From: Octopus sinensis
Taxonomy: Eukaryota
Length of the DNA: 31,074 nucleotides
Assembly: GCF_006345805.1 (NCBI RefSeq)
Contig: NW_021833373.1
Location: 1-31,074, forward strand
Reading direction: 5' to 3'
In this document: positions 6,217 to 30,490 of the stretch, in pieces
Position numbering within the stretch: position 1 is the stretch's first letter
Layout: each line of letters opens with the position of its first letter
The notes under the pieces: generated by a model
Databases searched by the model: none
Told to the model about the DNA's origin: nothing
The model's input: only the letters and a program-made list of their open reading frames with translations
Translations under genes and position numbers: made by a program

Positions 6217-6282
<66 letters not shown>

Positions 6283-7415
6283 CTAGCTGGTGTACCCGGT
6301 AATTCCCGGAGGTAAAGATGTTCTATTGAAACGCCTTATTACTCTGATATAAGAAAGCAATTCCGTTATAACTGCCACGAAAGGTGTATTTTCCGTCACG
6401 AAAAAGTACAAAAACTACCAGCTGAAGGATGGAGAGATTGTTGGAGGCTGGTGAGAGAAGTTTTCGGAGGTTGGCGAGAGGCAAAGACATTATTCTGCTT
6501 CGCGAATGCATCTGGGAAATGTATAACTGTCATTCACAGAAAAAACTATTGTTTTACCGTGAGAAAAGCGCTGTTGAAGTGTTAAGTGAAATTAGGCAAT
6601 CAAGAATCTAATCCACGCTATGCCTGCATGAAGCCACTACAAATACGTTGTGGAATAAAACATTATCTACTGTCATGGAAAAAGTGTAACTGTAAAAATG
6701 CAGAATTATCGGAGTAATGGGCATTCAAAACAGTATGTATGTATAGAAATGTATGAATGAAGTCTTCAAGGTTTAAGATTCAAATTAAGGAAGTGCAATA
6801 ATAATGTGTAGCAGTTCAAAACTGTGAGTAGTGAAATGCAAAATTAGGTCGGCTGATCGTGAGAATCAAATGTTGATCGCTTCGCTACAATCTGCAGGTG
6901 GTATGGGTTATTTCCCTTGGGTTGTTTAAATAAAATATTAATAATATGTAGTAGATGGAAAGATCCATTGGAAGGGCCCTATTATCGATTTTTTTCAAGA
7001 GTTTAAGTATGTCACGAGATTTCCAGACATGAGTTCTACTCACGTGTCAAATAAAGTATAAAAGTGATATTGTCTACAAAAATTAGAAATAGGACACTAA
7101 AAAAAATCAATATTCAAAGTAATCGAACATAAACAATGAAATGGGTTATTTCCCTTGAGTGTTTAAAAATATTGTACAGGTGCTATGGGTTATTTCCCTT
7201 GGGTGTTTAAAAAATTAGTTATATGAGGTAAATATAAAGGTCCCTTCCAGGGGCTGTATTATCTATGTTTTCAACAATCTAAGTACGTCACGAGGTTTCC
7301 AGACATGAGTTTTACTCACGTGTGAAGTTTCATTAAAATCAATAAAACAACGTAGGAGGAGTTAGATAACAATGCCACAAACAAACACACACCGATTTTC
7401 CACATATGTAGTAGA
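6283..7415 (-). mobile_element. non-autonomous Helitron family 1 (~1.13 kb)
   Basis: Minus strand 5' A|TCTACTACATATG and 3' CCGG-GAATTA-CCGG hairpin followed by CTAG|T, with no TSD. Internal GGGAAATAACCCAT repeats. Copies at 10585-11706 and 13493-14610. Confidence 0.8.
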
Positions 7416-7419
7416 TTTA

Positions 7420-7474
<55 letters not shown>

Positions 7475-7479
7475 TGTGT

Positions 7480-7620
7480 TCAGCTTATGGAACATCTGAA
7501 TGTTTCTGGGTCTTCTCAGCCAATACAACGGGAGATGGATTCCAAGAAACCCTGCTAGAAGTAGCAGTTATTCACAAGGGGTTGGATATAAATGAAACGA
7601 ACATGGAAAATTAAGCCAGC
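7480..7620 (+). pseudogene. possible hAT transposase fragment
   Basis: ECFWVFSANTTGDGFQETLLEV...GLDI resembles the ExFLGF...TTGxxL...L...GLDI segment of hAT/Tip100-type transposases. Short and degenerate. Confidence 0.3.
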
Positions 7621-7827
7621 GCGTTTATATAGAAGTGAACAATTCCAGTTTTACTGAGAAAGTAAAATACCTCCAGATTGTTTGACTAGTAATGATATTA
7701 ACATAGAATATTCAGTATGTTCTGAGAGCAATTATATAAACATATACACATACATACATACATACATACATACATACATACATACATACATACATACATG
7801 CATGCATGCATACATACATACATACAT

Positions 7828-7866
<39 letters not shown>

Positions 7867-7883
7867 CATAGATACATAGATAC

Positions 7884-7971
<88 letters not shown>

Positions 7972-8369
7972 ACAGACAGACGGACAGACATATAAGCATG
8001 CGTGCGTACGTATATGTGTATATAAGGAAGAGAGAGAGAGAGGGAGAGTGAGTGTGTGTGAGAGAGAGAGGGGAAAGGAGAGGAGAGGGAAAGATCGGCA
8101 GAAAGGAAAATAAAATACAATCGATTTTGTTTGAAGGCATACCAGGTGAAGGCATAATTTGTTAATTGCATAACATTTCGAAATACTGAACGTTTTAGCA
8201 TCAAATCTTTGTCAAATTGATAAGTTAATTATAGTTGCAGAGCAGCAGAACAACGTGAGTACGCGAAGCAAACATCTTAGCCCTTGCTTGCATCTCTATC
8301 CTTACTTACCTATGAATGCTCCCATCTCCTATTAGCATAATATTGGAAGAAGTGTAAAAACATGGTATA

Positions 8370-8569
8370 AGATGTAGGATAAACTGCTCAAATGGTTCTC
8401 TTTAGAGAAATCCCTATCCCTACTAATCTACACTCGTTATGCCGATAACATAAACATTGTGATTAAAGCCACTGTACAAAAGAAATCTGGAAAATAACAA
8501 CACTCTATGGAAAACATCCGGCAGATAGCAAACTCCATCCGCGAAAGCATTAAAGTTACCATTCATTGC
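8370..8569 (+). pseudogene. Penelope-like reverse transcriptase fragment
   Basis: One frame reads M*DKLLKWFSLEKSLSLLIYTRYADNINIVI...*QHSMENIRQIANSIRESIKVTIHC. YADN (8438-8449) corresponds to the YxRYVDD motif, and the partner copy continues PSKH. Confidence 0.6.
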
Positions 8570-8610
8570 GGTTGTTTAGCAAGCTACTTACCACACAGCC
8601 ACTCTGCGCC
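8570..8610 (-). mobile_element. 5' 41 bp of a family A SINE at an inversion breakpoint
   Basis: Minus strand GGCGCAGAGTGGCTGTGTGGTAAGTAGCTTGCTAAACAACC. The last 22 nt are identical to 12653-12674. Confidence 0.85.
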
Positions 8611-9487
8611 TATGTCTTTTTTTTTTAATAAGTATAACTTACACAATACAGACTCGATGGAACTGCATGTTTTTCTCTTACATCGATTTTCAGTTTTGTT
8701 TTATGTTGCACTCTCCTAAATTTGTTAACCGTTTCACTCTGAATGTAACCCCGATAAACATCGAACTTAGCAATTTGTTGTTATCTTACCTAGAATTTTT
8801 CTTGTCTAATCTTTACCTGTTTTTTTTATTAGTTTGTTCCAGAACCTGCTCCGGTACATGTATCGTTGCTGACGATTATTTCAATTTTTTTTTACCCCTT
8901 TATATTCTCTGATACGATCTCACTAGTTACATCCAGAGAATTGCGTAAAGTGGATGAAATCCTACACATGCTTTCTCTGTTTGCACGACGGACACGCGAA
9001 ATACGTTTCTCCTGGTCATCACAGGGTCTTTTATTAAGGTTTTTATGTTTGCATTTGTTAACATAGCAGGTAGGTTGAGGACCAGGTACATAGTGGCTAT
9101 AGGTTTCATTTAATGCGAGTGGAGAATTTGTTTCATGCTACTTGAAATTTTTAGCTATAATTCCGTATCAAGAACGAGTAGTCTTGTGTTAGGAAATATC
9201 TATTAGCGACAGAGAGGGCATTAACACGGAGAAGTAATATTTAACCGCACTTAACGTGGATGTTCTGTTAGAACAAACTATACTGCGATAGATAGCATGA
9301 GAGAAACTCTCATGTTGGCTTTTGGTGCAAAATGCTCTCTTGTTTATATTGTTAGCGGGGAGATAAATCCTCATCACCTCCAGCGTCGAAATAATCAGAT
9401 AACGTGATTTCGACCTTCCTTGGTCTTGTCAATGATGGACGCTCGATCGCTAGAGATAGCAGCGATTCATCTCCGCGCCAGCAGAGC

Positions 9488-9700
9488 GTGTTTGGATGGG
9501 CAATGAATGGTAACTTTAATGCTTTCGCGGATGGAGTTTGCTATCTGCCGGATGTTTTCCATAGAGTGTTGTTATTTTCCAGATTTCTTTTGTACAGTGG
9601 CTTTAATCACAATGTTTATGTTATCGGCATAACGAGTGTAGATTAGTAGGGATAGGGATTTCTCTAAAGAGAACCATTTGAGCAGTTTATCCTACATCTT
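9488..9700 (-). pseudogene. Penelope-like RT fragment (inverted copy, slightly longer)
   Basis: Reverse complement of 8370-8569, extending to ...SIKVTIHCPSKH. Confidence 0.6.
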
Positions 9701-10092
9701 ATACCATGTTTACACTTCTTCCAATATTATGCTAATAGGAGATGGGAGCATTCATAGGTAAGTTAGGATAGAGATGCAAGCAAGGGCTAAGATGTTTGCT
9801 TCGCGTACTCACGTTGTTCTGCTGCTCTGCAACTATAATTAACTTATCAATTTGACAAAGATTTGATGCTAAAACGTTCAGTATTTCGAAATGTTATGCA
9901 ATTAACAAATTATGCCTTCACCTGGTATGCCTTCAAACAAAATCGATTGTATTTTATTTTCCTTTCTGCCGATCTTTCCCTCTCCTCTCCTTTCCTCTCT
10001 CTCTCACACACACACTCACTCTCCCTCTCTCTCTCTCTTCCTTATATACACATATACGTACGCACGCATGCTTATATGTCTCTGTCCGTCTG

Positions 10093-10133
<41 letters not shown>

Positions 10134-11705
10134 GTATCTATCTATCTATGTGTCTGTCTGTCTGTCTGTCTGTCTGTATGTATGTATGTATGTATGCATG
10201 CATGTATGTATGTATGTATGTATGTATGTATGTATGTATGTATGTATGTATGTATGTATGTATGTATGTGTATATGTTTATATAATTGCTCTCAGAACAT
10301 ACTGAATATTCTATGTTAATATCATTACTAGTCAAACAATCTGGAGGTATTTTACTTTCTCAGTAAAACTGGAATTGTTCACTTCTATATAAACGCGCTG
10401 GCTTAATTTTCCATGTTCGTTTCATTTATATCCAACCCCTTGTGAATAACTGCTACTTCTAGCAGGGTTCTTGGAATCCATCTCCCGTGTATTGGCTGAG
10501 AAGACCCAGAAACATTCAGATGTTCCATAAGCTGAACACACACACACACACAACACACACAACACACACACACACACGCATAAATCTACTACATATGTGG
10601 AAAATCGGTGTGTGTTTGTTTGTGGCATTGTTATCTAACTCCTCCTACGTTGTTTTATTGATTTTAATGAAACTTCACATGTGAGTAAAACTCATGTCTG
10701 GAAACCTCGTGACGTACTTAAATTGTTGAAAACATAGATAATACAGCCCCTGGAAGGGACCTTTATAACTAATTTTTTAAACACCCAAGGGAAATAACCC
10801 ATAGCACCTGTACAATATTTTTAAACACTCAAGGGAAATAACCCATTTCATTGTTTATGTTCGATTACTTTGAATATTGATTTTTTTTAGTGTCCTATTT
10901 CTAATTTTTGTAGACAATATCACTTTTATACTTTATTTGACACGTGAGTAGAACTCATGTCTGGAAATCTCGTGACATACTTAGACTCTTGAAAAAAATC
11001 GATAATAGGGCCCTTCCAATGGATCTTTCCATCTACTACATATTATTAATATTTTATTTAAACAACCCAAGGGAAATAACCCATACCACCTGCAGATTGT
11101 AGCGAAGCGATCAACATTTGATTCTCACGATCAGCCGACCTAATTTTGCATTTCACTACTCACAGTTTTGAACTGCTACACATTATTATTGCACTTCCTT
11201 AATTTGAATCTTAAACCTTGAAGACTTCATTCATACATTTCTATACATACATACTTTTTTGAATGCCCATTACTCCGATAATTCTGCATTTTTACAGTTA
11301 CACTTTTTCCATGACAGTAGATAAATGTTTTATTCCACAACGTATTTGTAGTGGCTTCATGCAGGCATAGCGTGGATTAGATTCTTGATTGCCTAATTTC
11401 ACTTAACACTTCAACAGCGCTTTTCTCACGGTAAAACAATAGTTTTTTCTGTGAATGACAGTTATACATTTCCCAGATGCCTTCGCGAAGCAGAATAATG
11501 TCTTTGCCTCTCGCCAACCTCCGAAAACTTCTCTCACCAGCCTCCAACAATCTCTCCATCCTTCAGCTGGTAGTTTTTTGTACTTTTTCGTGACGGAAAA
11601 TACACCTTTCGTGGCAGTTATAACGGAATTGCTTTCTTATATCAGAGTAATAAGGCGTTTCAATAGAACATCTTTACCTCCGGGAATTACCGGGTACACC
11701 AGCTA

Positions 11706-11706
<1 letters not shown>
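9500..11706. repeat. right arm of the inverted duplication (homology resumes at 12557-12654 after Helitron insertions)
   Basis: Reverse complement of 6283-8569. Confidence 0.95.
10585..11706 (+). mobile_element. non-autonomous Helitron family 1, copy 2
   Basis: A|TC start at 10585, hairpin at 11680-11693, CTAG|T at 11703-11706. Confidence 0.8.
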
Positions 11707-11750
<44 letters not shown>

Positions 11751-11755
<5 letters not shown>

Positions 11756-12123
11756 GGCAGTTTGTCTGTGCGTGTTTCTGTGTGTCTGTTTGCTTGTACC
11801 CTCACCCTAACCACCGCTTTCAACCGATTCTGATGAAACTTGACACACACATAGCCCAATGTCATAATTCAAAACTAACGCAGCGAAAATTTTGAAAAGT
11901 TCCCCCAGTTCTGAAAAAAATCGATAAATTCGACATGGGGTCGAGAATCAGAAACACAAACCACAAACTGTCTAGGGGACGCAACTCCACCTTTTTTAAA
12001 TCTCAAAAAAAAAATTTACCATCATTTTTTTCCATTTTTTGCTATTTTTTGGCTATAACTCTCTAAAAATGCTTTATAGTTATTTCCCTTACAAACCTGA
12101 GCAACGCCGGGCGATACTGCTAG
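11751..12123 (+). mobile_element. non-autonomous Helitron family 2 (~370 bp)
   Basis: 3' end CCTGAGCAACGCCGGG hairpin-like motif followed by CTAG|T. The 5' end merges into (TA)n and is followed by GTCTGT repeats and AACCGATTCTGATGAAAC. Confidence 0.75.
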
Positions 12124-12154
<31 letters not shown>

Positions 12155-12162
12155 TATATATA

Positions 12163-12535
12163 TAAACGGCAGTTTGTCTGTGCGTGTTTCTGTGTGTCTG
12201 TTTGCTTGTACCCTCACCCTGACCACGGCTTTCAACCGATTCTGATGAAACTTGACACACACATAGCCCAATGTCATAATTCAAATCTAACGCAGCGAAA
12301 ATTTTGAAAAGTTCCCCCAGTTCTGAAAAAAATCGATAAATTCGACATGGGGTCGAGAATCAGAAACACAAACCACAAACTGTCTAGGGGACGCAACTCC
12401 ACCTTTTTTAAATCTCAAAAAAAAATTTAGCATCATTTTTTTCCATTTTTTTGCTATTTTTTGGCTATAACTCTCTAAAAATGCTTTATAGTTATTTCCC
12501 TTACAAACCTGAGCAACGCCGGGCGATACTGCTAG
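12163..12535 (+). mobile_element. non-autonomous Helitron family 2, tandem copy
   Basis: Near-identical to 11751-12123, separated by (TA)n. Confidence 0.75.
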
Positions 12536-12556
12536 TATATATGTATATATATATAT

Positions 12557-12654
12557 ACTTTATTTAAAGTAGCAGAAAATTCAACAAAACCTGTTACTCC
12601 GAGTTTCACGTTCCCGTTCATCGGACAGTTTTTGCTAGAATAGAACCGATATGT
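12557..12654 (-). ncRNA. half-palindrome copy with U4C hammerhead (core 12591-12628)
   Basis: Reverse complement of about 6123-6219. Within the ribozyme core only the stem III loop base differs (A to G). Confidence 0.7.
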
Positions 12655-12797
12655 AAGTAGCTTGCTAAACAACCACATGGTTCCGGGTTCAGCGCCACTG
12701 CGTGGCATTTTGGGCAAGTGTCTTCTGCGATAGCCCCGGGCCGACCAATGCCTTGTGAGTGGATTTGGTAGACGGAAAGTGAAAGAAGCCTGTCGTA

Positions 12798-12844
<47 letters not shown>

Positions 12845-13066
12845 TTGTGTGTCTGTGTTTGTCCCCCTAGCATTGCTTGACAACCGATGCTGGTGTGTTT
12901 ACGTCCCCGTCACTTAGCGGTTCGGCAAAAGAGACCGATAGAATAAGTACTGGGCTTACAAAGAATAAGTCCCGGGGTCGATTTGCTCGACTAAAGGCGG
13001 TGCTCCAGCATGGCCGCAGTCAAATGACTGAAACAAGTAAAAGAGTAAAAGAGAGAGTAAAAGAGT
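12653..13066 (+). mobile_element. SINE family A, 5'-truncated at a rearrangement junction
   Basis: B-box GGGTTCAGCGCC, internal (TA)n/(TG)n, GAGTAAAA tail repeats. Confidence 0.9.
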
Positions 13067-13492
13067 TGACGAAAAATCCTGTGTGAGCACAACCAACCCT
13101 TAGATTAGCTGCCAAGCTAGAAATATATAGCGCATGACATGCAGGAAAAAGCATTGAAAGGATACAATCAGAATCTTTATAGAAGAGGCTTCTGCAGTAG
13201 GAGAAAGGATTGCAGAATATAGGTGTAAATACAATGAAACATAGAAATATTTATACTTTACAGATTAGACCTACGGAAACACAATGTGTTAACAAAGAAA
13301 GTTAACGTAAAAGTTCTTTCCACACACCCAAAAGACCCGAAAATTAAGACAGATTACAGGGGCTGCACGAATAGAGGAAACAAATATAGACACACACACC
13401 ACACACACACACGCACACACACACGCACACACACACACCACACACACACACAACACACACACACACACACACCACACACACACACGCATAAA

Positions 13493-14609
13493 TCTACTGT
13501 ATATGTGGAAAATCGGTGTGTGTTTGTTTGTGGCATTGTTATCTAACTCCTCCTACGTTGTTTTATTGATTTTAATGAAACTTCACATGTGAGTAAAACT
13601 CATGTCTGGAAACCTCGTGACGTACTTAGATTGTTGAAAACATAGATAATACAGCCCCTGGAAGGGACCTTTATAACTAATTTTTTAAACACCCAAGGGA
13701 AATAACCCATAGCACCTGTACAATATTTTTAAACACTCAAGGGAAATAACCCATTTCATTGTTTATGTTCGATTACTTTGATATTGATTTTTTTTAGTGT
13801 CCTATTCTAATTTTGTAGACAATATCACTTTTATACTTTATTTGACACGTGAGTAGAACTCATGTCTGGAAATCTCGTGACATACTTAGACTCTTGAAAA
13901 AAATCGATAATAGGGCCCTTCCAATGGATCTTTCCATCTACTACATATTATTAATATTTTATTTAAACAACCCAAGGAAATAACCATACCACCTGCAGAT
14001 TGTAGCGAAGCGATCAACATTTGATTCTCACGATCAGCCGACCTAATTTTGCATTTCACTACTCACAGTTTGAACTGCTACACATTATTATTGCACTTCC
14101 TTAATTTGAATCTTAAACCTTGAAGACTTCATTCATACATTTCTATACATACATACTTTTTTGAATGCCCATTACTCCGATAATTCTGCATTTTTACAGT
14201 TACACTTTTTCCATGACAGTAGATAAATGTTTTATTCCACAACGTATTTGTAGTGGCTTCATGCAGGCATAGCGTGGATTAGATTCTTGATTGCCTATTT
14301 CACTTAACACTTCAACAGCGCTTTTCTCACGGTTTAAAAACAATAGTTTTTTCTGTGAATGACAGTTATACATTTCCCAGATGCCTTCGCGAAGCAGAAT
14401 AATGTCTTTGCCTCTCGCGAACCTCCGAAAACTTCTCTCACCAGCCTCCAACAATCTCTCCATCCTTCAGCTGGTAGTTTTTTGTACTTTTTCGTGACGG
14501 AAAATACACCTTTCGTGGCAGTTATAACGGAATTGCTTTCTTATATCAGAGTAATAAGGCGTTTCAATAGAACATCTTTACCTCCGGGAATTACCGGGTA
14601 CACCAGCTA

Positions 14610-14610
<1 letters not shown>
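13493..14610 (+). mobile_element. non-autonomous Helitron family 1, copy 3
   Basis: A|TC start at 13493, CTAG|T at 14607-14610. Confidence 0.8.
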
Positions 14611-14650
<40 letters not shown>

Positions 14651-14655
<5 letters not shown>

Positions 14656-15022
14656 GGCAGTTTGTCTGTGCGTGTTTCTGTGTGTCTGTTTGCTTGTACC
14701 CTCACCCTGACCACGGCTTTCAACCGATTCTGATGAAACTTGACACACACATAGCCCAATGTCATAATTCAAAACTAACGCAGCGAAAATTTTGAAAAGT
14801 TCCCCCAGTTCTGAAAAAAATCGATAAATTCGACATGGGGTCGAGAATCAGAAACACAAACCACAAACTGTCTAGGGGACGCAACTCCACCTTTTTTAAA
14901 TCTCAAAAAAAAAATTTAGCATCATTTTTTTCCATTTTTTGCTATTTTTTGGCTATAACTCTCTAAAAATGCTTTATAGTTATTCCCTTACAAACCTGAG
15001 CAACGCCGGGCGATACTGCTAG
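14651..15022 (+). mobile_element. non-autonomous Helitron family 2, copy 3
   Basis: Near-identical to 11751-12123. Confidence 0.75.
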
Positions 15023-15038
15023 TATATATATATAATAT

Positions 15039-15136
15039 ACTTTATTTAAAGTAGCAGAAAATTCAACAAAACCTGTTACTCCGAGTTTCACGTTCCCGTT
15101 CATCGGACAGTTTTTGCTAGAATAGAACCGATATGT
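15039..15136 (-). ncRNA. half-palindrome copy with U4C hammerhead (core 15073-15110)
   Basis: Same as 12557-12654. Confidence 0.7.
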
Positions 15137-15279
15137 AAGTAGCTTGCTAAACAACCACATGGTTCCGGGTTCAGCCCCACTGCGTGGCATTTTGGGCAAG
15201 TGTCTTCTGCGATAGCCCCGGGCCGACCAATGCCTTGTGAGTGGATTTGGTAGACGGAAAGTGAAAGAAGCCTGTCGTA

Positions 15280-15336
<57 letters not shown>

Positions 15337-15557
15337 TTGTGTGTCTGTGTTTGTCCCCCTAGCATTGCTTGACAACCGATGCTGGTGTGTTTACGTCCCC
15401 GTCACTTAGCGGTTCGGCAAAAGAGACCGATAGAATAAGTACTGGGCTTACAAGAATAAGTCCCGGGGTCGATTTGCTCGACTAAAGGCGGTGCTCCAGC
15501 ATGGCCGCAGTCAAATGACTGAAACAAGTAAAAGAGTAAAAGAGAGAGTAAAAGAGT
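15135..15557 (+). mobile_element. SINE family A, duplicated copy
   Basis: Near-identical to 12653-13066. Confidence 0.9.
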
Positions 15558-15911
15558 TGACGAAAAATCCTGTGTGAGCACAACCAACCCTTAGATTAGC
15601 TGCCAAGCTAGAAATATATAGCGCATGACATGCAGGAAAAAGCATTGAAAGGATACAATCAGAATCTTTATAGAAGAGGCTTCTGCAGTAGGAGAAAGGA
15701 TTGCAGAATATAGGTGTAAATACAATGAAACATAGAAATATTTATACTTTACAGATTAGACCTACGGAAACACAATGTGTTAACAAAGAAAGTTAACGTA
15801 AAAGTTCTTTCCACACACCCAAAAGACCCGAAAATTAAGACAGATTACAGGGGCTGCACGAATAGAGGAAACAAATATAGACACACACACACACACACAA
15901 CACACACACAC

Positions 15912-15953
<42 letters not shown>

Positions 15954-16267
15954 CACACACACACACACGCACACACACACACACACGCACACACGCACAC
16001 GCATTCACATACACACACCTAGTTATAAGAATGAATGAAATAACAACACTCTCCTTAACTACAATCTTCCACTACAATAATGCAAAAATAAAGACGAAAT
16101 AAAACTAAACCAACTAAAGTGAACAATTGTACACGCGCACATAACCCTCACACACACACACACAGATGTTCTTATGTGAACAATAAAATAAGCAAAAATG
16201 AATTAAAAACTAAAACTAAAGAAGTTCATTAACTCACACTTTTGCCAGTGAGATATAACGTAACAGC

Positions 16268-16935: not shown

Positions 16936-18800
16936 ATCTAGAAATATAACCTCTGCTCTCTGGCCAAAGCTACAATTATCTTAGACAGAGTGAAAAAGAC
17001 AACTTCGACGGACACATCAATAAGAAACCAAGGAATGTCAAGGGAGCAAAAATAAAATATGGCCATCGGAACTCTCAGCTTACAACAAGTATATCGCCCA
17101 CAATACCTTTGCAGTGCATATCGACGCTCACATTTGGCGTTCTTAATTGGTCACTGCAACTCAGTGAGATAGATGTACAAGCTCGCAAACTAATCAGTTG
17201 TCACTGGAAACTTCAGCATCAATGAAGATGTAAACATGCTATACTTTCTACGCAAGGTTGTTGACCGTGGTCTCAAATCTGTGTCGATGTCATATGAAGC
17301 ACGCATTGTGGCATTGAAGCTACACCTGCTGCAAAGAAAAGAGATCGGTAACTATTTTCCCCAAGTTTTTGACCATGAAATCAACAAGATAATTAGGATA
17401 GCTAATGAACTTCAGGAGCGCATGAAATAAGAGTTGATACAGATCTCACCCCAAAGAGCACTGGTAAATTCTATCTATCAACAGAACAAATTAAAGTAGT
17501 GCATCGATATTTGGCACAGAAGATAAAAGTCAGAGAGGGATTTGACCATATCAAGAGATATGCTCTGGGGTACCGGCAAGTTTATGACACCTCACATCGA
17601 AGGATACCTTCATGCCATTCAAGAACAAGAGATCTCCACCAAGTACCTACAGCATAAAATACAGAAAACGTTGACAGACAACAGATGTAGACCGTGCAAA
17701 ACTAAAACTGAAGCCAGCAACCACACTATTGTCAACTGCGAGAGAATGTTCTCTAAATATTATCTTCCTGTAATGCATGATGCGCTGGCCAGAGCAGTCA
17801 GGAACAAGATAACAAAAAATGAAAAAAATATCTACAGATGAAGTTGACTATATTGAGACCATCGGTGAAACTTAGAAATTAAAACAGCCACCAGGTTAAA
17901 ACATAACATAATGTTGTGTGGGACCACAAGAAAAATAGCTTTGTTGCGGAAATCAGCAGCCCTCTGAACACCAACGTGATCAGAATGCAGAAGAAAGAAG
18001 TGGATATCTATGGACCACAGTAAAGAGTTTGCAAATTCAGTATCCAAGATACACTTTCAGCTTCATACCTATAATTATTTATTTAAATTTTTGGCACAAG
18101 GCCAGCAATTTCGAAGAAGGGGCTAAGTTGATCGCATCGACTGTAGTACTCAACTGGTACTTATTTTATCGCCCCAAAAAGGATCAAAGGCAAAGTTGAC
18201 CTCGGTAGAATTTGAGCTCAACATGAAGACGGACGAAATACCTATTTCTTTACTACACACAGAGGAGACAAACAAGAACAGACAAATGGAATAAGTCGAT
18301 TATATCGACCCCAGTGCGTAACTGGTACTTATTTAATCGACCCCGAAAGGATGAAAGGCAAAGTCGACCTCGACGGAATTTGAACTCAGAACGTAGCGGC
18401 AGACGAAATACCTATTTCTTTATTACCCACAAGGGGCTAAACACAGAGGAGACAAACAAGGACAGACAAACGGATTAAGTCGATTACATCGACTCCAGGG
18501 CGTAACTGGTACTTAATTTATCGACCCCGAAAGGATGAAAGGCAAAGTTCGGCGTCGGCGGAATTTGAACTCAGAACGTAACGGCAGACGAAATACGGCT
18601 ACGCATTTCGCCCGGCGTGCTAACAATTCAGGCACCTCGCTATCATGCTTCACACCTATAATTATTGGAAGCAACTTGATACTTACCAACCCGTCTGGAG
18701 CAAAGTATGACTGCACTTGGATTTTTAGGGAAGGAAGGCAACTCCTTAATTAATAGACAGCATATGATATCTGGGACAACAACGTTCTGTAAGACCTTAA
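16450..18800 (+). pseudogene. decayed R4/Dong-like (RLE-type) non-LTR retrotransposon ORF, interrupted by SINEs
   Basis: RT motifs KGILQCDSL (~16641), FFV/DLKLY, KFGESKCA, IWPSELSAYNK..AHNTFAV, LYFLRK..DRGLKSV. EGYLHAIQEQEISTK is followed by the CRPC..TE..NH..VNC zinc knuckle and HD. The endonuclease-region EISSP...FIPIII|G is split by the insertion. Many stops and frameshifts; boundaries approximate. Confidence 0.75.
18080..18646 (-). mobile_element. head-to-tail trimer of SINE family B
   Basis: Units at about 18080-18240, 18241-18410 and 18411-18646. Flanked by the 20-bp direct repeat GCTTCA(T/C)ACCTATAATTATT at 18060-18079 and 18647-18666. Confidence 0.85.
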
Positions 18801-22538: not shown

Positions 22539-24314
22539 TCTCTATATTATAATTCTGAAATGCGAAAAGTTTGTCTGTTTGTCTGGTTTTGGCATTGAAA
22601 ACGGGTTAAAGGCCACTAGATCCCGTCGGATTGGCTCCAAAATTTACAGGGACATGTAAAATGAGGTGAGGATGTTAGAAATCCCCATCTTAAAAGGTGT
22701 CGTTGCTAGGGCCAAAAACGCACTTTGACAAGTCTACTCTCATTTTTTTATGCATCTGTCTTCCTCCATCACTCACTCTCTTTCGTCCCTTCCTTTCAAT
22801 TTCTATCTATAACGTCGTTTCACAGCGCCTACCTCCCTTCTCTTCACTTTCTCTTTATAACGTCGTTTCACAGCGTCCTATATCTCCCCTCCCCGCCTTC
22901 GACAGCGCTTTCACACACTCTCTCTCTCTCTCTACGTCTGTCTGCATTCATAGAGAGAATTATCATCGCTACCACCACCACATAATCATGAGAACAAATA
23001 TTATGAATCAGATATTTATTGGGTTAATTTATATATGTGTGTGTGTCTATATATAAATATGTATATATAATGAATATATACAAAGTGTATATATCTGTAT
23101 TTATGTATATTAAACTTTTTAATACTTTTTGATAGTTATATATATTTTTTTAAAATTATAAATATAAATTAATGATTTTAATTTTAAATTTAAATAACTT
23201 AAATTTTTTAATTTTATATTTTATATATTTTGTGTATTATATTTTTATTTTTATGTTTTGGTTTATGTTTTTCACTGTTTGATTTGCCTAATAGTGGTTT
23301 TACTCTAATTTAATTTATATATATATATATATATATATATAAATTATATACATTGTATATATAATGCGTACACACACACACATATATATATAATGCGTAT
23401 ATATATATATATATAATGTGTGCATTATGTGGTCGGTTATGCTGAAAATAATGCCACCTATCTTAAAAGTGCTGGCGAGTTTGCATGGCACACTATTTTT
23501 GACCTCAAATGAAGGCGTGACCTCTAGGACAAAATTCCTCATCTTAAAATGTGGCCCGAGTAGACCCGAATGAAATCGGGTTATATTAACCAAAATGTGA
23601 AAAGAGGTCTAAATGGGGCTTGAAGGGGATTAAAATTTACAGGAGCAGGTTTTTTAGGAATTCTCTGTTACATCAAGTTAAAAATTTGCGCCAGCCTTTT
23701 AATCGATCGTGATGTATTGCCGTCCATGATGAAGAAGTTTTGAATGCTTGCCATGGTGAGTCTACTGTCGTGAGAAAGAATCACTTCAAAGCTTGGTGTC
23801 TAGGAATTTTCTTTTACATCAAGTTCAACATTTTACGCCAGCCGTTAAACTGCTACTACGTTGCTGTTCGTCGTTAAGAAATGCCAGCCATGGTGACTCT
23901 ACTATCCTCAGATTCTATCCCTTCAAACTTTTGTTTCCAATATTTTTTTTTATTTTTATTCAACTCGCAAGTTCGTCAGTCCCTTTTAAATGTTAGTGTT
24001 TTGCTGTCTGCCTTGAAGCAGACCTTTCCGTTGTCACTGCCTGATATTTATGATTGATCTTTCAAAATATATTCTTTCTCAACTTACTCAAGATCTTTTG
24101 TTGTTTATAAATGGGAGAGAGATAGATAGAGAAAGATAGAGAGTAAGAGAAAGCGAAGGAGAGTCCGAGAGAAAGGAAGAGTAAGAGAGTGGGAAAGTGA
24201 GAGAGAAAGGAGAGAGAAACAAAGAGGGAGAATGAGGTGATAAAAAACAGAAAGGAAGCAACAGAAAGTTACAACCACACTCTTACCCGCGCGTAGAGCG
24301 GTCACCTTAAGCTA

Positions 24315-24315
<1 letters not shown>
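22539..24315 (+). mobile_element. non-autonomous Helitron family 3 (~1.8 kb)
   Basis: 5' A|TCTCTATATTATAAT followed by GTCTGT repeats. 3' CCGCGCGTAGAGCGG hairpin followed by CTAG|T (24312-24315). Pairing of these two ends is inferred. Confidence 0.65.
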
Positions 24316-24382
<67 letters not shown>

Positions 24383-24383
<1 letters not shown>

Positions 24384-24914
24384 AATTCTAGTTCTAAAAT
24401 CTCTTTAAGAGATCAACGCAGTAGTTGTACTAATAAGTAATGTTCGTAGCCACTTCAACACCCCAAGAAGATATTTCTTCTAGCTGGTTAACGATGCACA
24501 GCTGCATCCGAGATATTGCGAGCAGGGGAACGAACCCCTACCACCTTCCAGTGATGGGACCAGTAAACCGTCCTTGATCTCTTAGAGAGATTTTAAAACT
24601 AGCATTTGTGCTTATTGCAAAATCAGCGACTGTATGCCACTTGGAATTTTATATATTGCGAGCAGAAGCGAGCTACTGCTATCTTTAGCAGGCGAAGTGT
24701 TCAATACTGAAGAGAGACTGAAATAGCCCGAAACCAGGCTGGTCTGCTGACCCCGTCAATAGAAGGTGGTAGGAGTTCGCTTCCCCTGCTCACAATATAT
24801 CGGATGCAGCTGTGAGGAGGCGTCCAGCTAGAGAAGACGTCTTCTTGAGTTTAAAAAATCGCAGTAAAGCTCATTCGAACTGACAGTCATGTTGGAGTGG
24901 CTGCGAACATTACT

Positions 24915-24915
<1 letters not shown>
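24383..24915. mobile_element. (TA)n-embedded hammerhead-containing element with circularly permuted inverted copy (retrozyme-like or Penelope-like)
   Basis: Inverted pairs: 24383-24416/24574-24607 (31/34), 24435-24460/24890-24915 (24/26), and 24464-24569/24741-24847. Confidence 0.75.
24701..24750 (+). ncRNA. type I hammerhead ribozyme, canonical core, decayed stems I and II
   Basis: TCAATA-CTGAAGA-GAGACTGAAATAGCCC-GAAA-CCAG-G-CTGG-TC-TGCTGA, with cleavage predicted after GUC at 24744. Confidence 0.75.
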
Positions 24916-24945
<30 letters not shown>

Positions 24946-25218
24946 ACATACATACATACATACATACATACATACTACATACATACATACGTGCATGCAT
25001 GCATGCATGCATGCATGCATACATACATACATACATACATACATACATACATACATACATACATACATACATACATACATACATGTATATGCACACACCT
25101 GTCGAACGCTACCTGTGGGACACGAATCCTCAAACCTTGTAGTCCAACATCTTTGATCCAAAAGACTTTTTATTAACCCATTATTTACATGCTATTATTT
25201 ACAGCTTTATAAAAGCAG

Positions 25219-25382: not shown

Positions 25383-25480
25383 CTAGCAAATGCACCCGTC
25401 CTTTGGACGGTGTTATTTATTATAACGGTGCACTCCTGTGAACTGTTTAAGTTGAATAAACCCGCAGTTAGAAGTCGTTT

Positions 25481-25697
25481 GTGGAGGCGCATGGCTTAGT
25501 GGTTAGTGTGTCAGCATCATGATCGTAAGATTGTGGTTTCGATTCCTGAACCGGGCGACGCGTTGTGTTCTTGAGCAAAACACTTCATTTCACGTTGCTC
25601 CAGTCCACTCAGCTCGCAAAAATTAGTAACGCTGCGAAACCGGAAACCGGGCCAATGAGCCTGACTAGGCTTTAAAAGGGCGCATTTGTTTATTTTA
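25481..25697 (+). mobile_element. SINE family D head with tail Z, nested in the Helitron
   Basis: TGGCTTAGTGGTTAG and GGTTTCGATTCC boxes. 12-bp TSD TAGAAGT(C/G)GTTT at 25469-25480 and 25698-25709. Confidence 0.85.
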
Positions 25698-26249: not shown

Positions 26250-27185
26250 GAGTATAGAGGAATAAGCTGCCTGGATGGCCAACACTGGGACAACCGACGT
26301 AGAACTGACCATGTGGAAAGAACTACTTTCGAAGGTCCAATCCAACAACATTCAAGTACTGACCTTGTGGTTTGTTAATTGTCAGGGATAAGCTGAGTTT
26401 AAGAGGAAACTGTTGTCTCTGCATAGGGTAAGAGCAGTCTGTTGGGGTTAGCGGAATTTTCGGAATGAAAACGGTATCGTTTTCGCCGTGTCTCGTGATA
26501 ATTTGGGCTTCAATGACGTGGTCCATCATTTGACTGCAATGCAAGTTCCATTGCATAGTGTGGGTGCGTTTAGATTTCGTAGGAAGATGACAGAGCAACC
26601 GTCTTTTAAATTAAGTTCATGGGGAGAGAGTCCTGGAAGATCTTGGGAGTTGAGAAATTCTGTTGGAAAGTGTATAACCTGATCGAGGCCAGTAACCTTG
26701 TCAACTGATCTGTAACAACGTTCTTGAGAAGGTAGCTAACTGAGTAAGTTGTAGTTAAGAGTGTTGACAGCTGCATTTGTAGGTGCAAGAACAGCTTTGC
26801 CGTGAAGCCAATCTGATTTTATAGATTCCGTTGTAAAATTTGAGTAAACGGCGGAACATAAGTCATCAGGACTGGAGAGTGTGGCCAATGGTGGTCCGTT
26901 GTTGTCGGACGTAATTTGTCTATTGCCGAATTTAAGGAGCATTTCCGAAAACTGGGTTGTAGGCTGACCAGTCTGTAGGAGTGATCTCATGTTGATGGTG
27001 AGTTGTTTCGATCGGACAAGCGACCAAAGGAGGGATTTTATAAGACAGGTATTAAGTGCATCAGCGGGGCATTTTGGGTCTAATTGGCAGCGTTTGACGA
27101 AAATCTCCTGCAAGAAGTAGAGTCGCACCTCCGAGGATGTTGTTGTTCACTTTAAGGTCTCTCATTATGTTATCAAGTAAATGGC
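26250..27185 (-). pseudogene. Pif1-family (Helitron RepHel) helicase C-terminal remnant
   Basis: GGATLLLAGDFRQTLP, LWSLV..KQLTINMR, AVLAPTNAAVNTLN, LRNLNAPTLCNGT, VFIPKIPL...RQQFPLKLS.SLTINKPQGQ.L.VVGLDL, HGQFYVG. Frameshifted. Confidence 0.92.
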
Positions 27186-29489: not shown

Positions 29490-30490
29490 AACCCATTCAG
29501 CTTGCATAGCAGACACTTTTCTCATCAGTTGTCGATCAGATGTCATAATTGTTTCGACACCTTCCAACAGCCTCCGCCAGAGCCGAGTAGCATTGGTACC
29601 AACCATGAAATGGCCAGCTTTTTTCACCTCACACTAACACACTTTCCCTCACTATAGCACACGTAACCCTCCTTCATACACACACTGACCACAGCATAAC
29701 CTTTCCTGCCGTACAACATCTATTATTAATTACTGGAGGCGCAATGGCCCAGTGGTTAGGGCAGCGGACTCGCGGTCATAGAATCGCGGTTTCGATTCCC
29801 AGACCGGGCGTTGTGAGTGTTTATTGAGCGAAAACACCTAAAAGCTCCACGAGGCTCCGGCAGGGGATGGTGGTGATCCCTGCTGTACTCTTTCACCACA
29901 ACTTTCTCTCACTCTTACTTCCTGTTTCTGTTGTACCTGTATTTCAAAGTGCCGGCCTTGTCACTCTCTGTGTCACGCTGAATATCCCCGAGAACTACAT
30001 TAAGGGTATACGTGTCTGTGGAGTGCTCAGCCACTTACATGTTAATTTCACGAGCAGGCTGTTCCGTTGATTCGGATCAACCGGAATTCTCGTCGTCGTA
30101 ACCGATGGAGTGCTTCCATTATTAATTACCTATTGTGTATCTCTCCCTTTCTCTCAGCATTGGTCTTTGCCTTAAGCATCTTTGCCCATCCATTTCCTAT
30201 TACAATCTTCATTTCACGAATCACTGCCTCTCGCTCCTGCCATTCCTCCAAAGTGCATTTTGCAAGGGATGACACGCTGTACCAGAATATGTTTCAACAA
30301 TACATAACTTCTTCACCGTTAACAATCACCAATTTCACTCCTTTGATCCCAATTACTTTAGTTCCAATATCTTTCTTACCACTGTAATAATACTTGCAGG
30401 AAATCCTTTTAATCTATGCTCGTCCCTCTCCTACCCATGAGTCCTATACTGTACTTAACACCGCTTTTACTTTCAGGCTGCTCCCTAGAC
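29490..30490 (-). pseudogene. possible highly decayed APE-endonuclease region of an RTE-like LINE, interrupted by a SINE
   Basis: Weak motifs V*DSWVGEG...KYYYSG and ...RRLLEG. Very degenerate. Confidence 0.25.
29734..30117 (+). mobile_element. SINE family C head with tail Y, full length
   Basis: A-box TGGCCCAGTGG, B-box GGTTTCGATTCCC, 12-bp TSD ATTATTAATTAC at 29722-29733 and 30118-30129. Confidence 0.9.

Follow-up and report, generated by a model that had tools for sequence, protein, structure and literature searches.

The closest described systems are the metazoan non-LTR retrozymes and the Penelope-like elements (PLEs). Mussel non-LTR retrozymes measure ~350-390 nt (Cervera and de la Peña 2020, PMC7229834), and animal retrozymes have been argued to be non-autonomous PLE derivatives (Li, Clavereau and Pollet 2026, bioRxiv 10.64898/2026.07.22.740005). 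The enzyme that mobilizes them is still argued from co-occurrence and from the phylogeny of pseudo-LTRs (pLTRs) (PMC7229834; Li et al. 2026); the available text of the 2026 preprint contains neither "tail" nor "head-to-head," nor any relevant use of "inverted." PLE insertions have an inverted, 5'-truncated copy at the 5' end and a 30-40-bp tail that is often found at one end only, and they are biased toward microsatellites (PMC8557442); the commonest inverted form is head-to-head (PMC3846280). In the anole PLE, two internal reverse transcriptase (RT) start sites in a stem-loop enclose the tail, the enzyme nicks AT-rich DNA, the main template is uncleaved RNA, and RNA ends at the cut were not seen (Frangieh et al. 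2024, PMC11167929). Octopus genomes contain Hydra and Naiad PLEs that target (TA)n (supplement of PMC8557442). As for cephalopod hammerheads, a giant squid paper counts 235 loci without describing them. Our literature search found no octopus or cephalopod retrozyme described; repeat databases and some supplements lay outside that search, and the family may be catalogued there.

The locus described here occupies positions 24383-24915 of a 31,074-nt stretch of Octopus sinensis DNA (contig NW_021833373.1), the whole of which we call the window. It is probably a decayed copy of a many-copy, ~360-nt non-coding hammerhead repeat, likely non-autonomous, that was inserted into (TA)n by PLE enzymes. 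The likeness to metazoan non-LTR retrozymes lies in a ~360-nt non-coding unit with a GC content of 0.44 (within the retrozyme range of ~150-450 bp and GC <50%), one type I hammerhead per unit, a stable stem III, a self-paired predicted fold, and many dispersed copies. Unlike them, the locus holds a single ribozyme and an inverted partial copy rather than a head-to-tail array. We therefore file the repeat under a putative label, retrozyme-type, given for its ribozyme motif, size, GC content, lack of an open reading frame (ORF), and fold, and not as a proven retrozyme. With EN+ PLEs, especially those of the Hydra and Naiad clades, it shares a head-to-head 5'-truncated inversion, a short block at one end, a (TA)n target, and a type I hammerhead, but it has no RT or GIY-YIG ORF in the frames scanned, and its unit is 360 nt as opposed to 2-4 kb. 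The Chlamys elements, such as MRC1 (Craig et al. 2021, PMC8557442), are comparable as non-autonomous PLE derivatives that form pLTRs and occur as multi-copy insertions; they differ in being green algal and in having 3' ends that resemble those of autonomous partners, whereas no partner is named here.

Compared by eye, Hydra-1_Obim has identical ribozyme core letters and a similar palindromic stem III (PMC8557442). No likeness to published PLEs was found beyond the ribozyme core, either by eye or in two motif look-ups (0 matches). The consensus ends of octopus Naiad and Hydra PLEs were also compared by eye with a possible parent in mind, and none was convincing.

For the wider family, we drew on contigs assembled from four public DNA runs and matched to 24384-24915 at 80% likeness; no RNA run figured among the 23 runs listed. 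These runs (X1, X2, X3, and X9) have the organism labels A, B, C, and E, respectively; 16 further runs with smaller shares were left out. X1 and X2 contain most of the stretch, while X9, which has a different organism label, contains the family and not this locus.

Structure of the locus and its hammerhead motif

The window is microsatellite-rich, animal-type DNA carrying pieces of decayed transposons. At the locus (Table 1), a plus-strand unit (24574-24915) reads in the order A-hammerhead-C-B and a minus-strand inverted copy (24569 to 24383) in the order C-B-18 nt-A. The two copies diverge, 5' end to 5' end, and the outer ends of both abut (TA)n. Block A is absent from the right end of the insertion and so occurs at one end only. 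Because both flanks are microsatellite, a target-site duplication is unreadable. Blocks A, B, and C, the ribozyme, and the 18-nt linker all lie where the first-pass annotation had placed them, with identities of 31/34 for A and 24/26 for B; for C, BLAST aligned 24741-24847 with minus-strand 24569-24464 at 77.6% over 107 nt (E = 3e-18). The last 3 nt of the inverted copy overlap the start of the direct block A, which may reflect microhomology.

Table 1. Coordinates of the insertion, its flanks, and the duplicated segments of the window
Feature	Position	Strand	Remarks
Duplication pairs, inverted and direct	6236-8569 / 9500-11752; 10536-12141 / 13440-15039; 12119-13485 / 14606-15982		~5.5 kb inverted, 95-97%; 1.4-1.6 kb direct, ~98%
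Left (TA)n tract	24316-24382		Period 2, 35 copies over 24316-24383; presumed target
Block A, 3' end of inverted copy	24383-24416	-	34 bp; 31/34 identical to 24574-24607; candidate PLE-type "tail"
18-nt linker between B and A	24417-24434	-	Absent from direct copy; family contigs span B-linker-A in 4/4 runs
Block B, inverted copy	24435-24460	-	24/26 identical to 24890-24915
Site of ~39-nt deletion, inverted copy	24461-24463	-	Direct copy keeps the segment at 24848-24889
Block C, inverted copy, downstream of cut-site equivalent	24464-24565	-	80/103 columns match 24745-24847; 15 differences are transitions
Start of inverted copy, part of stem III upstream of cut-site equivalent	24566-24576	-	7/12 columns match 24733-24744
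Block A, 5' end of direct copy	24574-24607	+	Contains a predicted 7-bp hairpin
Long predicted hairpin extending stem I, ribozyme at tip	24651-24800	+	24651-24685 self-complementary to 24763-24800
Type I hammerhead	24701-24750	+	6-bp stem I, CUGAAGA, stem II with one bulged A, GAAA, palindromic stem III, GUC
Block C, direct copy	24745-24847	+	Matched to inverted copy
Segment between C and B	24848-24889	+	42 nt; family standard
Block B, 3' end of direct copy	24890-24915	+	The 3' end of the inverted copy extends 52 nt further
Right-end tract, (TA)n then (TACA)n	24916-25084		Right end of the insertion

The hammerhead descriptor has a single match in the whole window, both strands included (at 24707). 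Among 5000 dinucleotide shuffles of the 532-nt element it matched once, and among 100 shuffles of the whole window it never matched. The core CUGAAGA lies at 24707-24713, GAAA at 24730-24733, and the GUC triplet at 24742-24744, with cleavage predicted after 24744. In Rfam, no hammerhead family was matched, and the only models returned were hairpin-driven miRNA models far under their thresholds; the minimum-energy fold of the isolated motif is not hammerhead-shaped. The fold of 24660-24800 has a z score of -4.0, with 1 of 200 shuffles equally stable.

In the window copy, stems I and II of the ribozyme each contain one mismatch, and the family majority letters mend both. Of 27 stem pairs, 22 form in the window copy and 26 with the majority letters, a count that draws on the 12 majority letters shown for 24685-24774 (from 40 of 316 variant rows listed), that includes one pair closing a 1-nt loop, possible only in a dimer, and that is not blind, since the stem registers were chosen partly with the majority letters known. 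The change consists of the repair of all five broken pairs, a double change at 24701/24750, the conversion of two wobbles to Watson-Crick pairs, and the breaking of one pair. At one ribozyme position, the majority letter is present in 48-72 distinct contigs per run. The family letters argue that the window's hammerhead copy is decayed rather than spurious. The motif is in itself no proof of activity, as just one of nine predicted frog retrozymes was found to cleave (Li et al. 2026).

A separate observation concerns one family copy (joint 24679 to 24785; one contig each in X1, X2, and X3), which skips or replaces the ribozyme-bearing tip of the hairpin, 105 nt in all.

Several other repeats share the window. 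A short hairpin followed by CTAG adjoins the left (TA)n tract (24285-24315, plus strand), and a CTAG-(TA)n ending recurs at five other places (6286 on the minus strand, 11703, 12120, 14607, and 15019); we take the hairpin-CTAG ending to resemble a Helitron-type 3' end. Broken Pif1-like helicase fragments at 26529-27146 (minus strand; Pif1_2B_dom, E = 2.7e-12; PIF1, E = 0.005) are probably a decayed Helitron. There is also a ~5.5-kb near-perfect inverted duplication bounded by (TA)n (95-97%, simple repeats included), overlapped by 1.4-1.6-kb direct duplications (~98%) and a 412-nt tandem unit. These duplications, at 6236-15982, are either a recent rearrangement of a CTAG-ending repeat or an assembly artifact. 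An interspersed short repeat with a tRNA-like head at 25480-25628 has relatives at 822-956, 1748-1826, and 29734-29837 and resembles octopus SINEs. A weak zf-RVT match (E = 0.003) in a fragment at 17527-17841 (plus strand) is probably the end of a decayed LINE.

A many-copy family with a permuted unit

The first-pass annotation had supposed a repeat family, and the contigs bear this out: 1177 match in X1, 1497 in X2, 1379 in X3, and 1532 in X9. About half of them are <90% alike, and the commonest changes among them are C>T and G>A. Judged from these contigs, the repeat is a family of many copies, mostly old. X1 and X2 contigs reproduce the direct unit with 0-1 differences; the locus's own inverted junction is spanned by none of the contigs listed (32 of 6368 records). 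Pattern scans of metagenome contigs and viral contigs gave no match to the repeat.

Each step around the unit, that is, A, ribozyme, C, the 42-nt segment, B, linker, and A again, is seen in family contigs. Coverage of B, linker, and A is unbroken in all four runs. Past the inverted copy's block A, 25 contigs in X1, 38 in X2, and 48 in X9 continue with sequence like that which follows the direct block A, the consensus of loose ends beyond block A having a low agreement of 0.53-0.54. From block A into the ribozyme, sequence is continuous in 16 of the 32 listed records, two near-identical ones excepted, and some of these loci recur across runs. With block A on both sides of the unit family-wide, a permuted monomer of ~360 nt is supported. 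The permuted non-coding unit with a type I hammerhead that had been proposed from this locus is thus found again in other copies, B-linker-A junction included. The proposed sum of 342 + 18 nt fares less evenly, for ~360 nt fits the family but the inverted copy itself is without ~39 nt between C and B. In all four runs, loose contig ends at 24460 resemble 24848-24889 (compared by eye, among the loose ends listed), so that the 42-nt C-to-B segment is standard in the family and the inverted copy is a deleted one.

The unit is non-coding, the longest stop-free stretches of the tripled monomer being 46 and 49 aa. Folded as a circle, the joined monomer is predicted to reach -110.4 kcal/mol with 62% paired (z = -4.1, with none of 100 shuffles equally stable), a stability largely contributed by one hairpin. 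Among the listed records (32 of 6368), no contig contains two whole ribozymes, an array that contigs of this length could not show. Contig depth is greater over C-B-A than over the ribozyme, which would fit 5' truncation, but depth cannot rank the parts. No clustered ends were recorded for the contigs, which by their nature do not reveal where copies end.

Copy ends and competing explanations

The first-pass annotation had the inverted copy begin within about 3 nt of the predicted cleavage site and named clustering of copy ends there as a check. A start at the cut itself narrowly fails. The inverted copy's homology begins upstream, 4 nt ahead of the cut by BLAST; across stem III, up to 11 nt ahead of the cut, 7/12 columns match. 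The inverted copy still has stem III's 3' strand together with positions one and two of the cleavage triplet, all of which would be missing from a 3' cleavage product. A start inside stem III would imply that the template was uncleaved or re-ligated RNA, if it was RNA at all. Two same-strand joints in the contigs add further ends. At 24440 to 24577 (two contigs each in X1, X2, and X3), the inverted copy has its start within block B, and the direct copy begins 3 nt inside block A. At 24548 to 24609 (one contig each in the same runs), the inverted start lies ~9 nt before the cut, and just past block A the direct copy begins, with only 25 letters on the shorter side. By their sequence arrangement, both joints are further head-to-head insertions elsewhere in the family. 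Four joints (24460/24720, 24509/24604, 24546/24615, and 24548/24705) may be further junctions of this kind but were left out of the head-to-head count, because no strand is listed for them and the region before the ribozyme is self-complementary to block C.

The direct copy starts at an edge of block A in all three junctions, this locus included, and the inverted copy here ends at the block's far edge. Among the joints, loose ends, and records listed (15 of 278, 24 of 1222, and 32 of 6368, respectively), end positions come from these three junctions, which, though few, point to block A rather than the ribozyme cut as the main determinant of copy ends. Two of the three inverted starts fall in stem III, and our guess is that the template was switched at the palindrome.

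These ends bear directly on the idea that the inverted copy derives, as cDNA, from the 3' product of ribozyme cleavage, with copy ends marking the cut of a circular or tandem retrozyme RNA. The inverted starts at this locus and at 24548 to 24609 do lie within ~11 nt of the cut, but both retain stem III letters upstream of it, the third junction begins in block B, and the anole PLE mainly uses uncleaved RNA and gave no cut-site RNA ends (PMC11167929), so that we find this origin improbable. We give slightly less credence still to a tandem hammerhead satellite that was inverted after insertion by DNA repair or stem III fold-back, with a PLE enzyme uninvolved in the inversion. Such an event would suit the palindrome of stem III, the two junctions within it, and the other large inverted duplication in the window; against it, head-to-head joints occur at other loci with differing breakpoints, both outer ends adjoin (TA)n, and the starts of direct copies at block A edges would go unexplained. 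A polymerase III SINE-like element whose transcript began in stem III and stopped at the T run following block A would match the span of the inverted copy, and box-like words are visible. An A-box-like word lies at ~24740-24750 and a B-box-like word at ~24774-24784 (plus strand), at a spacing that is shorter than in tRNA genes and counts against such an element. ARAGORN finds no tRNA gene in the window, the A-box-like word is dictated by ribozyme pairing, and the transcript would be without the whole ribozyme, yet the ribozyme stems are conserved; of all the explanations weighed, we rate this the least probable.

The remaining alternative keeps the PLE but dispenses with a separate non-autonomous family: the repeat would be the pseudo-LTR of an autonomous PLE (e.g., Hydra- or Neptune-type), and the locus would consist of two heavily 5'-truncated copies. 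The insertion footprint would be identical, Hydra-clade PLEs bear canonical hammerheads with a 4-bp palindromic stem III and target (TA)n (PMC8557442), and one X9 record extends upstream of block A by 1098 letters, which are unread. We nevertheless think it unlikely, since family contigs show every step around the unit, so that an ORF has no obligatory place in it, since no PLE protein match lies nearby in the flanking frames scanned, and since the 3' end of Hydra-1_Obim, compared by eye, is unlike the unit beyond the ribozyme core.

Probable mobilization by Penelope-like enzymes

The preferred reading, a non-autonomous hammerhead repeat inserted by PLE enzymes, takes its second half from the footprint of the insertion. 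A head-to-head, inverted, 5'-truncated copy is present at this locus and in the two other junction types, and both flanks at this one locus are a PLE-type (TA)n target. Block A, at 34 bp, is tail-sized and repeats the start of the direct unit, though the two ends of the insertion differ by 52 nt, the 18-nt linker also being missing, as against 30-40 bp. No Pfam match to RT or GIY-YIG was found in 32 of 64 frames (at least 45 aa, 21-28.5 kb), the scanned frames lying between 20.9 and 27.9 kb; the other 32 are mainly simple-repeat frames or overlap scanned DNA. The flanking frames scanned likewise gave no Pfam match to the tyrosine recombinase and RT ORFs of a DIRS element. Attachment to a coding Penelope or DIRS element, which the first-pass annotation had allowed for, thus finds no RT, GIY-YIG, or tyrosine recombinase match in the scanned frames flanking this locus. 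The simplest reading of these sequences is that a PLE, acting in trans, moved a non-autonomous unit.

How this might proceed can be sketched from better-studied elements. A PLE RT/GIY-YIG protein would bind a transcript longer than one unit, either a multimer left uncleaved or a circle formed by re-ligation. After nicking (TA)n, the protein would start cDNA at sites around the 34-nt block A, by analogy with the anole PLE, whose two start sites bound its tail (PMC11167929). Next, another cDNA, this one 5'-truncated, would be attached in head-to-head orientation, an arrangement common in PLE insertions (PMC8557442, PMC3846280), and most copy ends would be set by block A rather than by the ribozyme cut. 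The ribozyme, for its part, would cut multimers into monomers, perhaps circularized, as in mussel and coral retrozymes (PMC7229834). More tentatively, we suggest as a possibility that this is a cephalopod retrozyme family with a full Penelope footprint, in which cDNA starts and stops at the edges of the 34-nt hairpin block and not at the cut.

A retrozyme and a Penelope pLTR had been set against each other as origins of the repeat. Given the PLE footprint at the locus and the argument of Li et al. (2026), the two readings largely merge. Taken alone, the locus is a single decayed copy of a mobile repeat of an ordinary sort. Its interest is that a retrozyme-sized unit with PLE-type inversions, a tail-sized block, and a (TA)n target constitutes evidence from insertion structure, and that the unit is a 360-nt candidate substrate for a PLE reverse transcriptase in vitro. 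The cis element that is recognized was given as unknown in a 2020 review (PMC7761336). If the block A reading is true, the family would provide direct structural evidence that PLE enzymes move animal retrozymes, together with the cis element through which they would do so.
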